From: a virus | Lineage: Duplodnaviria > Caudoviricetes | Strand: one strand, 5' to 3' | Virus record (IMG/VR): IMGVR_UViG_3300028048_003164 | Coordinates: 1-64,000 of that record | DNA length: 64,000 nt | Part shown: one piece after another, positions 35,997-40,901 of the stretch | Position numbering within the stretch: position 1 is the stretch's first letter | Layout of the letters: each line of letters opens with the position of its first letter | Translations under genes and position numbers: made by a program | The notes under the pieces: generated by a model | Told to the model about the DNA's origin: nothing | The model's input: the letters and a program-made list of their open reading frames with translations, nothing else | The model's database searches: none

Positions 35997-36388
35997 AAAA
36001 GGGGAAAATATACGAGTTTGACCCTATTCTCTATCCTCGTCTGTTGTGGATAGTCAAAGGTTCGGGGGATTTCGTCAGGGAACACTTTCGCAAGAAGGGA
36101 GGTGACGAACTGACGGAAGACGACGTGGATATGCGCTATGTCGATTCGTGGGTATGCAAGTGCGAGCGGAAATCCGACAACAGGCTCGGTATCGTTTTCT
36201 TTTTTGACACAGGGTTAGAGGCTAAACAGCTTGTTCACGAATGCTATCACGCCCTTACGGCATTTGTCAGCGAGATTAACGCCGACCTCCCAGACTATGA
36301 CAGTGACGGGATGGAGGAGTTTGCGGCATACTTGATAGAGTGGATTTTCGATTGCTGTTGGAAGGTAAAGCAAGGTAAGGTGAAATGA
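35993..36388 (+). CDS. HExxH zincin-like protein
   Basis: HECYH...EEFAAYL. Confidence 0.6.
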   Translation: MKKGKIYEFDPILYPRLLWIVKGSGDFVREHFRKKGGDELTEDDVDMRYVDSWVCKCERKSDNRLGIVFFFDTGLEAKQLVHECYHALTAFVSEINADLPDYDSDGMEEFAAYLIEWIFDCCWKVKQGKVK

Positions 36389-38766
36389 CAGACACGGACA
36401 TTTTGAGGGCTTGGACGCTGAAGAGTTCCCTTAACTTCACAAGGTACTTCTTCAAGCAGAACAACGACATGAAGTTCATCATAGGCAGGCACCACAAGCT
36501 TATCTGTGATGCCCTTGATGATGTCCTTAACGGAAAATGCAACAAACTTATTATTAATTTGTCGCCGAGATATGGAAAAACGGAACTTGCAGTAAAGAAC
36601 TTCATTGCTATGGGGTTAGCCGTCAATCCTTCTGCCAAATTCATCCACCTCTCTTATTCTGCCAACCTTGCACAAGACAACTCTATTGCCGTAAAAAATA
36701 TAGTTCAAAACGAAGAATATCAACGGCTCTATCCTACCCGTATCACCTACGGAAAGAATATGAAATCTCAGTGGGAAACCGACCAAGGAGGTGGCTTGTA
36801 CGCCACATCTACGCTCGGTCAGATTACTGGTTTCGGTGCAGGTCTTGTCGAAAGGGAAGGTGAACCGTATCGTTTTGGTGGCGCAATCATTATCGATGAC
36901 CCTATCAAGCCGGAGGATGCCCTTTCCGATGTTGTCCGTGAGCGTGTGAACCGACGTTTTGAAACAACAATCAGAAACCGCGTCAATTCCCGTAACACAC
37001 CCATTATCATTATCATGCAGCGTTTGCATGAGCATGACCTCTGCGGCTATTTGCAGGAAATAGAACCCGACGAGTGGCGGGTGATATCACTGCCAGTTAT
37101 ACAGATAAACGAGAACGGAGAGCGTGAAGCACTGTGGCCATACAAGCATACGTTGGAGGAACTTGATAAAATAAATGCAGCGAACTCCTTTGTTTTTGAG
37201 ACGCAATATCAGCAGAACCCAACGCCGATGGAAGGTCTGATGTACGAACACCCGTTCAAGACATATTCAAAACTTCCGCCCGTAAAGCTTGGAACGATGT
37301 GTAACTGCACGGACTCTGCGGACACAGGTGCCGACTATCTCTGCTCAATCACCTATCTATCAATGAAGGATGGTTACTATGTTACAGATGTAATATTCAC
37401 GAAGAAAAGCATGGAACATACCGAGCCGTGGATGGCGCAGATGCTGGCTAAATGGGATGTTCGATACTGCGTCATTGAATCCAACAATGGTGGCAGGGCA
37501 TTTGCCAGGAACGTGGAGAGACTATCCCGTGAGTATGGCAATGGAAAGACTACGTTCATAACATTCACGCAAACGAAAAACAAACAGGTTCGCATCTTCA
37601 CAAGAAGCCAAGAAGTGAACAATCTGCTTATCTTCCCCGAGGATTGGGAGCGCAGGTGGCCAGAGTTTGCCCATATGATGAAATCGTACAGAAGAGAAGG
37701 ACATAATGCGCATGATGATGCTTGTTTTACGGCAGGAACTCCCGTGGCAACTATATGGGGAAATAAGCCTATTGAAAAGTTAAAGGTAGGCGATTATGTT
37801 TTAACCCCATTCGGAGTAAAGAGAGTCCTTGCATGTGGAAAGACGGGACATAAGCCTACGGTTTCGCGTTTTGGTTTGCAAGTGACTGAAAACCATAGAT
37901 TTTTTAGCTTAAATAGCTTTAAGCCAGTGATGGAATGTGAAGAAAATTCGTTATCTTTGCTTGGAATAAAAGAGCAATTGTTATGGAGATTCAGGAAACT
38001 ATTACTTTCAACGGAGTCGAATACCGTCTTGTGGGGTCGGGAAGGTATTATCTCAGCCAGTCAAAGACTAACGAGGGACGAAAAGGCGCAAAAAGCCTTC
38101 ATGTCGCAATTTGGGAGTTTTATAACCAACAAGAAGTTCCTAAAGGCTATTGCATTCATCATAAAGACCATAATACTTTTAATAACGACATCAGTAACTT
38201 GGAGTGTTTACCGATTAAGCAACACTTGTCGGAGCATAGCAAGAAGAATTGGCAATACGCTGAATATCGGAAAAAAATGGCAGATACCCAACAGAAACGT
38301 TGTGAGGCCGCATCAGAGTGGCACAGAAGCAAAGAAGGAAGGGAATGGCATAGAAAACACGCACATTGCGAGCGAAAACTGCGAGTCAGCATTTGTAGGT
38401 TCTGCGGAAAAGGTTTCCTGTCAAACAAAATCGACGCATGGTTTTGCAGCGAAAAATGCGGTGAGAACTACCGAAGAAACTATGAACTCAAATATACGGC
38501 TGTCTGTCAAGAGTGCGGCAAGGTATTTCAGTACGGAAAAGGATCAGCTGGACAACCAGATAGAAAGTTCTGTAGCCGTTCTTGTCACATCGCGAACAAC
38601 AACAGAAAACGCAAGAGACGTGTATAATATCACGGTAGAGGATGTCGGTTGTTATTATGCCAATGGAATTCTTGTGTCGAATTGTGATTGTGCTACTATG
38701 GTCATTGAAAGGGGAAGCCTTATCAGCGGCGCAAGCGATGAACAGATACTTTCGGATTTCTTATAG
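36385..38766 (+). CDS. terL: Terminase large subunit with intein
   Basis: PRYGKT, IIIDDPIK, MQRLH..DL, YQQNP, ESNNGG, HDDA/CD. Confidence 0.93.
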   Translation: MTDTDILRAWTLKSSLNFTRYFFKQNNDMKFIIGRHHKLICDALDDVLNGKCNKLIINLSPRYGKTELAVKNFIAMGLAVNPSAKFIHLSYSANLAQDNSIAVKNIVQNEEYQRLYPTRITYGKNMKSQWETDQGGGLYATSTLGQITGFGAGLVEREGEPYRFGGAIIIDDPIKPEDALSDVVRERVNRRFETTIRNRVNSRNTPIIIIMQRLHEHDLCGYLQEIEPDEWRVISLPVIQINENGEREALWPYKHTLEELDKINAANSFVFETQYQQNPTPMEGLMYEHPFKTYSKLPPVKLGTMCNCTDSADTGADYLCSITYLSMKDGYYVTDVIFTKKSMEHTEPWMAQMLAKWDVRYCVIESNNGGRAFARNVERLSREYGNGKTTFITFTQTKNKQVRIFTRSQEVNNLLIFPEDWERRWPEFAHMMKSYRREGHNAHDDACFTAGTPVATIWGNKPIEKLKVGDYVLTPFGVKRVLACGKTGHKPTVSRFGLQVTENHRFFSLNSFKPVMECEENSLSLLGIKEQLLWRFRKLLLSTESNTVLWGREGIISASQRLTRDEKAQKAFMSQFGSFITNKKFLKAIAFIIKTIILLITTSVTWSVYRLSNTCRSIARRIGNTLNIGKKWQIPNRNVVRPHQSGTEAKKEGNGIENTHIASENCESAFVGSAEKVSCQTKSTHGFAAKNAVRTTEETMNSNIRLSVKSAARYFSTEKDQLDNQIESSVAVLVTSRTTTENARDVYNITVEDVGCYYANGILVSNCDCATMVIERGSLISGASDEQILSDFL
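37952..37959 (+). promoter_or_regulatory. -7 promoter element inside intein coding sequence
   Basis: ttcgtTATCTTTGc ending 24 nt before the ATG at 37983. Confidence 0.65.
37983..38627 (+). CDS. HNH endonuclease nested out of frame inside the terL intein
   Basis: LHVAIWE...IHHKDHNTFNNDISNLECL plus two C..C/FCS..C Zn fingers. Confidence 0.88.
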   Translation: MEIQETITFNGVEYRLVGSGRYYLSQSKTNEGRKGAKSLHVAIWEFYNQQEVPKGYCIHHKDHNTFNNDISNLECLPIKQHLSEHSKKNWQYAEYRKKMADTQQKRCEAASEWHRSKEGREWHRKHAHCERKLRVSICRFCGKGFLSNKIDAWFCSEKCGENYRRNYELKYTAVCQECGKVFQYGKGSAGQPDRKFCSRSCHIANNNRKRKRRV

Positions 38767-38854
38767 GAATGACGAGGAATGATAAGATACTTTAGCATAT
38801 TTTTCTGCCGTTTTTTCGTACTTTATTCGTATCTTTGTCGAAAAAAGAGAAAAT

Positions 38855-39646
38855 ATGGGATTTCATAGAGTATCAGCAACGAGAAACATGCGCACACCTC
38901 ATGCGCACCTCGATAGGAAGGATAATGGGGATATATATGCCGTTTACAAGTTGGGCTTCACCAAGAATGCATCACGCTTTGAGTATTGTTTCATAGGAGG
39001 GGAGTCAGGAACGTTGACTTTTGACGGGAATGTAATAGAGGCGCATCCGAAGTTCAAGAATATCGATGCATTTGAGGGATGGTGCAGAAAGTATTTAGCA
39101 GAACATGATTTATAAGATATGAGAGTATTTTTTCAAGACCCAGACACGGAATATGTGATTTTCCATACGGAGGACAGTCCCGTAATACCGAACGTTGGAG
39201 AGGAAGTTCGGTTGGAAATGAATTGGTATAAAGTCGTGGAACGCACGTTCTATTACAAGCATCTAACCAATATGGATGATAATAGCTGCACTGTCTGGGT
39301 TAAACCTTTATAATAATAAGCAATGGCTACAGATGAATTAAAACAAGAATTGACTTCCCTAAACAAAAATGACCTTCTTTATTTGATAGAGGGTCTTATG
39401 GAAGATGGTGTGATAGACATCACGGATATTACACTATGTCACACAAGGGCACTTGAAAGCAAACTTGCTGCAAAGGACAAGGTTATCTTTGAGGCAGATA
39501 AGTGTATCTTTGAAAGCGTATTTACCGATTCTATAGGCAAACCTGCTGATAATGCAGCCCTGATGCGTAAGTTGGAATGGATGGAAAAGACGGGAATGCA
39601 TAATATGGACGGAATAATGGAATATCTAAAATCAACAAACAAATAA
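38855..39646 (+). CDS. Three small hypothetical ORFs (38855-39115, 39119-39313, 39323-39646)
   Basis: Packed operon after TATCTTTG at 38830-38837. Confidence 0.6.
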
Positions 39647-40140
39647 TGGAAGCGATAGCAAGTTTTACGATTGACCACACAAAGTTAAAGCCTGGGATTT
39701 ACGTTTCCCGTGATGACAAGGACTTTACGACCTTTGACCTGCGCTTCACAGAACCGAACAAAGAGCCTGCCATTGAGCCAGCCGCCATGCACAGCATTGA
39801 GCACCTAATGGCTACGTGGTTCCGTAACAGCGAGGTGAAGGATGACGTGGTTTATGTAGGCCCGATGGGATGTTTGACGGGAATGTATATCATTATGCGT
39901 AAAGGGTATGACGTTTATAAGATGGCCATTCTGACTTTGAGGTGTCTGCGGTGGATAAGTGAACAGACGGAAGTACCTGCCACAACGCCAGAGACGTGCG
40001 GCAATTACCTTCTTCACGATTTGGAATCGTGCAAGTGGGAGTGTAGTAGGTATTTCGTCCGCCTTCTTAATGATTTCCATTGCGAGTACACCAAGTTGCA
40101 CGTCACGCTTGATGATGGAAAGGAGTTTGCAGATGCTTAA
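39646..40140 (+). CDS. luxS: S-ribosylhomocysteine lyase LuxS
   Basis: SFTIDH, FDLRF..PN, HSIEH, GPMGCLTG, CGNY..HDL. Confidence 0.93.
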   Translation: MEAIASFTIDHTKLKPGIYVSRDDKDFTTFDLRFTEPNKEPAIEPAAMHSIEHLMATWFRNSEVKDDVVYVGPMGCLTGMYIIMRKGYDVYKMAILTLRCLRWISEQTEVPATTPETCGNYLLHDLESCKWECSRYFVRLLNDFHCEYTKLHVTLDDGKEFADA

Positions 40141-40151
40141 AATAAAAGGCA

Positions 40152-40901
40152 ATGAAGATTCAATACGCATCAGACCTACATTTGGAGTTCCGTGCCAACC
40201 GAGAGTGGCTGCGTGAGAATCCGTTGGAAGTGGCAGGAGACATCCTTCTGCTTGCTGGAGATGTTATGCACATAGAGGATTGTGCTTGGTTCTGGGACTG
40301 GGCAGGAAAGAATTACAAACATGTGCTTGCCGTGCCAGGAAACCATGAGTTCTATGGTAGTAACCTTGCAGACTATGCTGAAAGTTTCGTTAAGCCAATA
40401 TACTCTAACGTTGCATACTATCAGAATAAAGTTGTTCGGATAGAAGATACGGATTTCATATTCTCCACGCTATGGTCTGACATTGCACCAGAACATGAAC
40501 TTTCTGTAAAATGTGGCTTGAATGATTTCCGAATGATAGAGTTTGGAGATTATAGACTGACTCCGCATGTGTATAGGCACGAGCATGAGTTCTGCGTTAG
40601 AATGATAAAGGAAATGGTCGAGGCATCTACCGCCAAGCATATCGTTGTTGTCACCCACCACTCACCGTCTCTGCTGACGATAGCAACGGAACACCATACA
40701 AGCCCGCTACGTTCAGCCTTTGCCACAGACCTACACTATCTAATGGAGGACGGAAGGATTGACTATTGGGTCTACGGACACTCGCATACGAACATCAACT
40801 GCAAGGTGTTCAATACGGAGGTGATATGCAATCAGCTCGGTTATGTGGAACACAATGGGCAGATGGCAGGTTTTAGGTTAGATAAATATTTCGAGATATA
40901 A
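40152..40901 (+). CDS. Calcineurin-like metallophosphoesterase
   Basis: SDLH, AGD, GNHE, THH, GHSH. Confidence 0.92.
   Translation: MKIQYASDLHLEFRANREWLRENPLEVAGDILLLAGDVMHIEDCAWFWDWAGKNYKHVLAVPGNHEFYGSNLADYAESFVKPIYSNVAYYQNKVVRIEDTDFIFSTLWSDIAPEHELSVKCGLNDFRMIEFGDYRLTPHVYRHEHEFCVRMIKEMVEASTAKHIVVVTHHSPSLLTIATEHHTSPLRSAFATDLHYLMEDGRIDYWVYGHSHTNINCKVFNTEVICNQLGYVEHNGQMAGFRLDKYFEI

Follow-up and report, generated by a model that had tools for sequence, protein, structure and literature searches.

The element described here resides in the large terminase gene (terL) of a gut provirus. The gene lies in a window of 64,000 nucleotides (nt), positions 1 to 64,000 of the IMG/VR virus record IMGVR_UViG_3300028048_003164 (Duplodnaviria; Caudoviricetes), and "the window" below always means this whole stretch. 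The terL precursor occupies positions 36385-38766 of the plus strand, as do all the parts of it described below, and codes for 793 amino acids (aa) made up of an N-extein, an intein, and a C-extein. Inside the intein, and in the +2 frame relative to terL, is a second open reading frame (ORF) at positions 37983-38627 that codes for a predicted HNH endonuclease of 214 aa. The offset follows from the two starts (37983 - 36385 = 1598, which is 2 modulo 3), and both frames are open across all 645 nt. The provirus record contains only one copy of the HNH gene.

The 793-aa ORF is assigned as a large terminase by PHROGs (phrog_30251, E value 7e-127), in one stretch that covers residues 40-776; matches to Terminase_6C and to a T7 RNaseH-like domain in residues 310-446 are both under their curated cut-offs. 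The N-extein (36385-37722, 446 aa) ends in NAHDDA and is 92-81% identical to its closest relatives in the protein collection, which are intein-less terL proteins of 473-476 aa. It is followed by the intein (37723-38682, 320 aa, precursor residues 447-766), which runs from Cys1 (NAHDDA/CFTAGT at the start) to a terminal Asn (ANGILVSN/CDCATM at the end), and then by the C-extein (38683-38766), whose 27 aa from Cys+1, plus the stop codon, align with the C-terminal tails of intein-less terL proteins. The insertion point is inside the conserved HDD-x-x-D stretch of the terminase, splitting its nuclease motif as HDDA/C. Intein-less alleles read HDDGPDCATM or HDDAEDxxT across this site, which shows that the +1 Cys arrives with the intein.

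The two ends of the intein are recognizable as the lobes of a Hint domain. The 320 aa match Hint_2, PT-HINT, and Intein_splicing in Pfam, each under the curated cut-off. The N-lobe (intein residues 1-90, 37723-37992) contains block A (CFTAGT) and, in block B, the T-x-x-H signature, present as TENH at residues 55-58 (37885-37896). In an alignment of 37 sequences, C1, H58, and N320 do not vary, and at least 90% retain T55. The C-lobe (38602-38682) is composed of blocks F and G and ends in VYNITVEDVGCYYANGILVSN; here V300, Y301, A313, L317, and V318 are nearly invariant in the same alignment. The terminal Asn followed by Cys+1 (LVSN/C) is what class 1 Hint inteins need. Speaking against a splicing-competent intein is the penultimate residue, which is Ser, the common His being absent.

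Between the lobes, the terL frame reads the 645 nt of the HNH gene (37983-38627) as a linker of intein residues about 87-302 with 0 stops. In a model of the intein made from the 37-sequence alignment, the pLDDT score (predicted local distance difference test) is above 87 in the N-lobe (87-97) and 76-96 in the C-lobe from residue 291 on, and scores of less than 50 are found at residues 98-128, 194-257, and 272-291. A long helix in the model (residues 139-193, with scores of 62-86 per 10-residue block) is the shifted HNH motif, and AIAFIIKTIILLITTSVTWSVY is what the HNH catalytic motif GYCIHHKDHNTFNNDISNLECLP becomes when it is read in the intein frame. The top PDB matches of the model in Foldseek are almost all inteins, BIL, and hedgehog Hint domains (E value 2e-3, probability 1.00).

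The 214-aa product itself matches HNH_3 (PF13392) with an E value of 1.8e-11 and 43.9 bits against a cut-off of 24.8, as well as an HNH family in PHROG (phrog_15471, E value 3.6e-25). Its catalytic core (residues 55-85, 38145-38237) has the pattern GYCIHHKD..NN..NLE....H, in which H59, H60, N68, N72, and H81 are invariant in 42 sequences. Two zinc-ribbon-like motifs of four cysteines each (C138/C141/C155/C159 and C175/C178/C197/C201, 38394-38585) follow toward the C-terminus; the Cys columns are conserved, and this part of the protein gives weak matches to the YacG and FCS zinc-finger folds. The stop codon of the gene (TAA, 38625-38627) spans the Tyr (TAT) and Asn (AAT) codons of VYNITVE in block F of the intein.

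The AlphaFold2 model of the HNH protein, made from the 42-sequence alignment, has a mean pLDDT of 93.5. The closest solved structure is I-HmuI of phage SPO1 (1u3e), a weak match with a VIA Z score of 6.2 and a root-mean-square deviation of 6.3 over 116 aligned residues. Foldseek gives the same pair an E value of 0.33 and finds no match to the HNH model at an E value of 0.001 or better, and the only PDB sequence match of the HNH family profile is again I-HmuI (E value 0.0035). Both are HNH proteins, and I-HmuI is a homing endonuclease; it is, however, carried by a group I intron, an RNA intron, whereas the gene in the window is in an intein, and the match is at 12-13% identity and does not cover the zinc ribbons. 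The sequence match to HNH_3 and the invariant catalytic residues support a placement of the nested ORF among the HNH_3, I-HmuI-like His-Me finger proteins, as a predicted endonuclease.

Much of this layout had been described in the original prediction, which was made from the bare sequence. Every coordinate it gave for the 320-aa intein and its splicing blocks is right, and the same goes for the 214-aa HNH protein with two zinc fingers in the +2 frame, the 645 nt open in both frames, the HNH stop overlapping block F, and the splitting of the catalytic HDDA-C-D motif by the insertion. The text in the middle of the intein that had looked like an off-frame reading turns out to be just that, the shifted reading of the HNH catalytic motif.

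Spread of the nested arrangement and its tie to the terminase locus

The same nesting is found in many other phages. When the HNH protein was compared with 50,697 phage records by tblastn, 28 records matched, and +2 nesting inside an annotated, fully open terL was seen in Clostridium phage phiCDHM19, Tetrasphaera phage TJE1, Acinetobacter phage Highwayman, and Rhodobacteraceae phage LS06-2018-MD07. The Tetrasphaera phage, with two records, is the only actinophage among these matches. All four phages have terL alone annotated, with the nested HNH gene missed. A related record, that of Clostridium phage phi CD119 (L002), has stops or frameshifts in both the terL and the HNH frames at 778-2595 and annotates terL as two genes and a hypothetical protein, which could reflect sequencing error or a decayed element.

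A scan of the viral contigs with the single HNH protein gave no match, so that an alignment was needed as the query; with an alignment of five HNH proteins, the IMG/VR scan returned 547 relatives. Among the best 80 of these 547, 73 are nested at +2 in a long ORF that spans them, none at +1, and 7 are free-standing. The HNH frame is open for at least 180 aa in 71 of the 73 nested viral loci, the other two being L066, where it is broken, and L057, which is cut by the contig end. For contigs of prokaryote genomes, 53 of 66 loci were examined, 13 short matches (L140 and L142-L153) being left out; 31 of the 53 are nested at +2 and 22 are free-standing, with none at +1 and none in frame. This makes a total of 104 nested and 29 free-standing among 133 relatives. 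The labels of the nested records include Nostoc, Bacteroides, Prevotellaceae, Sodaliphilus, Ignavibacteriaceae, Chloroflexia, Acidobacteria, Patescibacteria, Planctomycetes, Pseudomonadota, and several archaeal metagenome-assembled genomes (MAGs).

The position of the HNH gene within the intein is as uniform as its frame. In all 50 relatives with callable borders, Cys1 follows HDDx, DNH, or xDH, and the intein ends in Asn followed by Cys or Ser. The HNH gene starts 83-100 aa past Cys1 in 49 of the 50 (the N-boundary of the remaining one, L063, was probably mis-called by the pattern) and stops 7-30 aa ahead of the intein end, at exactly 19 aa in 24 of the 50. No proteins of 376-2000 aa carrying the HNH in frame were found, which is weak evidence by the tool's own rating. 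A scan of metagenome contigs gave one distant locus (L086), which was left out of the analysis, and a word-based search with the linker region of terL that overlaps the HNH gene gave 8 proteins, a figure that is not a measure of prevalence.

Some relatives depart from the common form. In L066 (2194-2265) and L097 (2983-3024), the HNH frame is broken and the host frame is open; the endonuclease has likely decayed here within an intein that still splices. From stop to stop, the open frames around the HNH gene in L006, L027, L034, and L037 measure 1112-1195 codons, far beyond other terL precursors, and may hold further inteins, fusions, or upstream read-through. Two close terL relatives, P0002 (609 aa, 95% identity) and P0020 (612 aa, 82% identity), carry a different mini-intein at the P-loop (SPRYGK/C...SHN/T) and none at HDD; this terL lineage is thus invaded at two sites at least. 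Two inteins may also be present in P0122 (930 aa) and in P0123 (1174 aa, with a LAGLIDADG_3 match).

The 80 viral contigs whose terL N-exteins are most like that of this provirus (61-90% identity) were also compared. In 79 of the 80, terL is no longer than 520 aa and lacks the intein, and a homologue of the HNH gene is absent within 4 kb. The composite is found in L159 alone (83% extein identity), and L158, at 90%, is without it. The intein-less relatives are about 475 aa long, in line with the 473 aa that had been predicted for the spliced product. Such patchy presence is what homing or frequent loss would predict, and it argues against an essential role in packaging.

The free-standing homologues are informative as well, since they adjoin terL or terS in all four of the phages inspected, CL2, PAE1, BP10, and Shemara (L154-L157). 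In three of these the HNH gene is between terL and the portal gene and in one it is just before terS, which ties the HNH family to the terminase locus. The favoured explanation of this tie is that the HNH proteins are homing genes that target terL, and it is less likely that they are partners of the terminase. Transfer between very different terL families is also suggested by the sequences compared. Of course, there are figures that weaken the case for mobility. The HNH identity correlates with the extein identity (r = 0.81), and only 12 of 1035 pairs have an HNH identity of at least 45% with an extein identity below 25%. With such a correlation, vertical inheritance or movement between similar terL genes could account for much of the spread, and homologues next to terL also fit a function linked to the terminase.

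That last point leads to the best-placed of the alternatives, which we nevertheless consider improbable. The nested HNH protein could be a non-selfish helper of the terminase in packaging, like the HNH proteins that cos phages encode beside their terminase genes. For HK97 gp74, a role in packaging was reportedly described by Kala et al. in 2014. Zinc-ribbon HNH nickases adjoining terminase genes appear in PMC3592412, and they resemble the protein in the window in both respects, as do the homologues directly beside terL or terS in the four phages named above. The protein in the window, however, matches a different Pfam family, being HNH_3 and I-HmuI-like, with no PF01844-type match among Pfam matches at E values up to 0.1, and is encoded in a single copy nested in an intein. 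Its absence within 4 kb of terL, along with that of the intein, in 79 of the 80 nearest terL relatives indicates that the lineage does not need the HNH protein.

Selection on the two reading frames

Stops are avoided in the terL frame across the HNH gene. Among distinct nested ORFs of at least 400 nt, 52 of 52 have no stops in the host frame, and their third frame has a mean of 23. The equivalent frame in the free-standing homologues has 7-11 stops in 7 of 7. A Met followed by a residue with only A-starting codons forces a stop in the host frame, and this combination is found for none of 103 Met in nested ORFs and for 2 of 14 in free-standing ones. In the window alone, when the HNH ORF was shuffled with synonymous codons in 2000 trials, a mean of 2.9 stops arose in the terL frame and the probability of none was 0.011; the third frame of the same ORF has 18 stops.

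Two other ways of reading the locus were tried and rejected. A fractured gene with a split intein is ruled out by the one open frame from 36385 to 38766 and by the stop-free host frames of the relatives. A group I or group II intron around the HNH ORF is not supported either, with no Rfam intron family matching 37500-38900 at E values up to 1, and RNA splicing of an intron bearing the HNH gene is disfavoured because an open host frame would then be unnecessary.

The substitutions tell the two frames apart. Differences at HNH codon positions 1, 2, and 3 number 26, 8, and 78 in pairs with at least 97% nucleotide identity, 46, 30, and 117 at 90-97%, and 20, 11, and 61 at 80-90%, so that third positions make up 61-70% of the substitutions in close pairs. 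The third HNH position is the second position of the intein frame. Between the window and L159, its closest nested relative, the differences are 48, 38, and 93, and in contigs of a near relative third positions account for 16 of the 20 differences listed.

At the protein level, the HNH frame shares 68.5% of its residues with L159, and the same DNA read in the intein frame shares 46%. The figure for the Hint N-lobe is 62%, and past the HNH stop 18 of 19 residues are identical. Over all pairs, the amino acid identity in the HNH frame exceeds that in the intein frame in 1313 of 1315. Two properties of the data make this total less telling than it looks: the pair counts are not independent, the close pairs being the reliable ones, and aligning the sequences in the HNH frame, as was done here, biases distant pairs toward that frame.

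Together, the third-position bias and the higher identity indicate that the HNH frame is under purifying selection, as one reads it from these comparisons. They also support the view that the intein frame is kept free of stops in the overlap but is not conserved as a protein, while the Hint lobes on either side are conserved and model confidently. Stop-codon avoidance across homologous inteins was among the checks proposed in the original prediction, and it is seen.

The same comparisons bear on the idea that the HNH ORF is a decaying, unexpressed relic, in which case the locus would be a mini-intein with a junk linker and only the terL frame would matter. Decay does occur in the family, as the broken HNH frames of L066 and L097 and the phiCD119 record, broken in both frames, make clear. 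The ORF in the window, however, is intact, its catalytic residues are conserved, and the large majority of nested viral loci are open. With the signs of purifying selection added, a relic becomes very unlikely.

Start signals and expression

For the HNH protein to be made on its own, translation would have to start inside terL. Relatives have a start codon at the homologous place, with a Shine-Dalgarno (SD) sequence written into intein residues L-K-E-L. GGAG or GAGG is present at −17 to −5 before the HNH start in 20 of the 52 relatives, compared with a rate of 5.8% for the other ATG, GTG, and TTG triplets of the same host ORFs, taken as controls (binomial P about 4e-12, with relatedness ignored). 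An in-frame stop is upstream of the HNH start by 27-45 nt in four of the five sequences checked and by 270 nt in TJE1. In the window, the start is preceded by an A-rich leader, ATAAAAGAGCAATTGTT (37966-37982), with AAAGAG where relatives have AAGGAG or GGAGG.

The original prediction had also placed TATCTTTG at 37952-37959, followed by the A-rich leader, and these positions are right. This sequence is a candidate −7 promoter box of the Bacteroidota type, 23 nt before the HNH ATG at 37983. Its pattern, TAnnTTTG, is found 66 times in the window against 44.7 expected. The exact sequence has 10 copies on the plus strand (2333, 3196, 18041, 22354, 37952, 38830, 39484, 39505, 45725, and 51749), five of which are 17-56 nt before an ORF of at least 60 aa, including one that is 17 nt before the ATG of the next gene (38855). 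It may be the preferred promoter box of this phage, and a role as the HNH promoter is plausible as a candidate; it is also kept at the same position in L159. A scan for sigma-70 promoters gave 11 sites against 7.4 expected, a consensus that is inapplicable to a Bacteroidota-type host.

There are also points against the promoter and start signals of this phage. The window lacks an SD sequence before the HNH start, having AAAGAG only. The intein residues L-S-L are encoded by TATCTTTG as well, and coding may be the reason for its conservation in L159. Neither a −33 element nor a transcript start was seen. Contigs from an RNA library (X20) come from a relative 87-97% alike and are possibly DNA carry-over; they are uninformative on transcription or its start, just as the stretches without X20 cover carry no meaning.

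The host is probably a member of the Bacteroidales. A Bacteroidota-type host is inferred because an 81%-identical terL is labelled as coming from a Bacteroidaceae MAG, because the sequencing runs that hold the stretch are animal-gut metagenomes (the named ones bovine or sheep, with run shares below 0.2 excluded from this reading of the habitat), and because of the excess of TAnnTTTG. SD pairing is little used in Bacteroidota. The AAAGAG and the A-rich leader would fit such a host for this reason.

The start signals also speak to programmed frameshifting, which, twice or once, would make the HNH protein part of the intein precursor and thus a canonical in-frame domain. Both frames are open, as this would need, and there is a run of seven A at 38271-38277. 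On the other hand, inspection by eye of 37941-37983 revealed no X XXY YYZ slippery site, and a stop of the HNH frame (37938-37940) is just upstream, with relatives having an SD sequence and a start codon at the homologous place. To regain block F, two precise shifts would be needed. Frameshifting is given a very small chance.

An error in the sequence is easier to judge, since contigs from three other studies cover the locus. These are X2 (a single contig spanning 37400-38900), X4 (pieces over 37400-38765), and X5 (pieces over 37400-38635), and none has an indel inside 37723-38682; the only indels seen are in the C-extein of one diverged X4 contig and in the spacer after terL. The notion of two compensating indels that put an in-frame HNH intein out of frame, named in the original prediction as what would refute it, can appeal to the frame breaks in the old phiCD119 record, but with those contigs, with the same +2 frame in 104 of 133 further loci and four GenBank phages, and with an HNH frame that is bounded by its own upstream stop (37938-37940) and its own terminal stop, it is hardly credible.

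A proposed composite element and its known relatives

The reading that fits best is that terL of this gut provirus contains a composite mobile element, an intein with a separately translated homing endonuclease, and we consider this likely. Every comparative test made agrees with the idea that a self-contained HNH gene sits out of frame within an intein able to splice. The comparisons show the anatomy, its conservation, selection specific to each frame, stop avoidance, start signals in relatives, and a patchy distribution. Splicing, separate expression in this phage, nuclease activity, and the target are inferred; splicing is proposed because the host gene is essential and the splicing blocks are conserved.

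The element would work as follows. terL would be translated as the 793-aa precursor, in which the two Hint lobes (residues 1-90 and about 294-320) would pair across a linker of ~200 aa that is the frame-shifted reading of the other gene. Self-excision of the intein would restore a 473-aa TerL with an intact nuclease motif. Read at +2 from its own ATG (37983), the same DNA would give the 214-aa I-HmuI-like HNH protein with its two zinc ribbons, produced separately by internal initiation on the terL message, from an internal promoter, or both. The HNH protein would then cut or nick intein-less terL alleles of related phages, and repair would copy the intein and the HNH gene into them, which is homing. 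Selection would preserve the HNH protein and the Hint lobes, and in the terL frame of the overlap only stops would be forbidden.

One could go further and propose, tentatively and at somewhat less than even odds, that the out-of-frame layout is a stable and ancient strategy of one large, terL-specific lineage of intein and HNH gene in viruses of many bacterial and some archaeal groups. Under this proposal, the start signal would be written into the LKEL motif of the intein and the stop into block F. The reason proposed lies in geometry. A nuclease of the elongated, I-HmuI-like kind may be unable to sit in the Hint loop as an inserted domain. It would for that reason persist as an overprinted gene of its own, whose shifted reading serves as a flexible linker. 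If the ancient strategy is real, the family would be a living example of an origin of bipartite inteins in which the splicing domain comes first and the endonuclease invades later, and the overlap would be among the longest conserved dual-coding stretches in phages.

There are consequences for those who work with such sequences. Because gene callers give the long terL ORF alone, they overlook the nested nuclease. With 104 nested and 29 free-standing loci, the family offers a large natural data set on how homing endonucleases and inteins are joined. For the study of overlapping genes, this is a clean case in which one frame is kept as a protein and the other is merely stop-free. A conserved terminase motif may be the target of the HNH protein, acting as a site-specific nickase or cutter, and an intein that splices here would be one that tolerates an arbitrary linker of 200 aa.

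The kind of element is not new, having been known since 2025. A preprint of that year (10.1101/2025.01.02.630785) surveys about 800 inteins of actinobacteriophages and describes out-of-frame homing endonucleases (HENs) in phage inteins, namely an endonuclease VII-like HEN in frame 3 as well as antisense LAGLIDADG and VSR-like HENs, which it states were unreported before. It proposes that they arose when free-standing HENs invaded inteins. The premise of the original prediction that intein endonucleases are normally in frame was thus overstated. The terL intein described here fits the preprint's description, since its splicing blocks enclose an endonuclease ORF that shares their strand and uses a different frame, with the host frame open.

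The likeness to the frame 3 elements of the preprint extends to an in-frame reading without a recognizable fold and to terL being among the non-canonical intein hosts. There are differences too. The nuclease in the preprint is endonuclease VII-like (IPR004211), whereas that of the window is HNH_3 and I-HmuI-like with two zinc ribbons, and the architecture is called rare there, within PhagesDB, whereas here 104 of 133 relatives, spread over many lineages of bacteria and archaea, have it in addition to the gut provirus. None of the phages named in the text of the preprint is among the 28 records matched by tblastn; some elements of its supplement may belong to the family described here. What is new here is the nuclease family, the host range, and the size and uniformity of a clade that is apparently widespread. 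No description in print of an HNH_3 family in terL inteins was found within a search whose scope stopped short of the preprint supplements, and the word "intein" is absent among the literature matches listed for phiCD119, phiCDHM19, and TJE1.

Other known systems share single features with the element. A second 2025 paper from the same group as the preprint (PMC11855218) concerns the ShiLan domain, where an HNH gene has been inserted out of frame into the DNA methylase of a phage. The HNH is hidden in another frame, the host ORF is open, a stop lies at the end of the insertion, and the mode of translation is in question, all of which is also true of the element in terL; but ShiLan is without splicing domains and is thought to be retained in the protein, and the insertion in the window is flanked by conserved Hint lobes. 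Fractured genes, described by Dassa et al. in 2009 (PMC2677866), have split inteins whose halves flank a free-standing endonuclease gene. They likewise combine splicing parts with a separately encoded endonuclease in one locus and support the invasion of inteins by endonucleases. There, however, the host gene is broken into two ORFs joined by trans splicing, and in the window one ORF runs through the endonuclease gene.

A few minor observations complete the picture. Two methyltransferase inteins were checked for nested and antisense ORFs, and the only ones overlapping that region are three on the antisense strand, of 110-157 aa. The spacer after terL has a weak match to a preQ1-II riboswitch (38778-38857; 24.5 bits against a gathering threshold of 47, E value 0.21), which is probably due to chance. 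Farther along, the provirus encodes a LuxS protein (39646-40140; PF02664, E value 6e-45), followed by a calcineurin-like phosphoesterase (40152-40901; PF00149, E value 5e-15).

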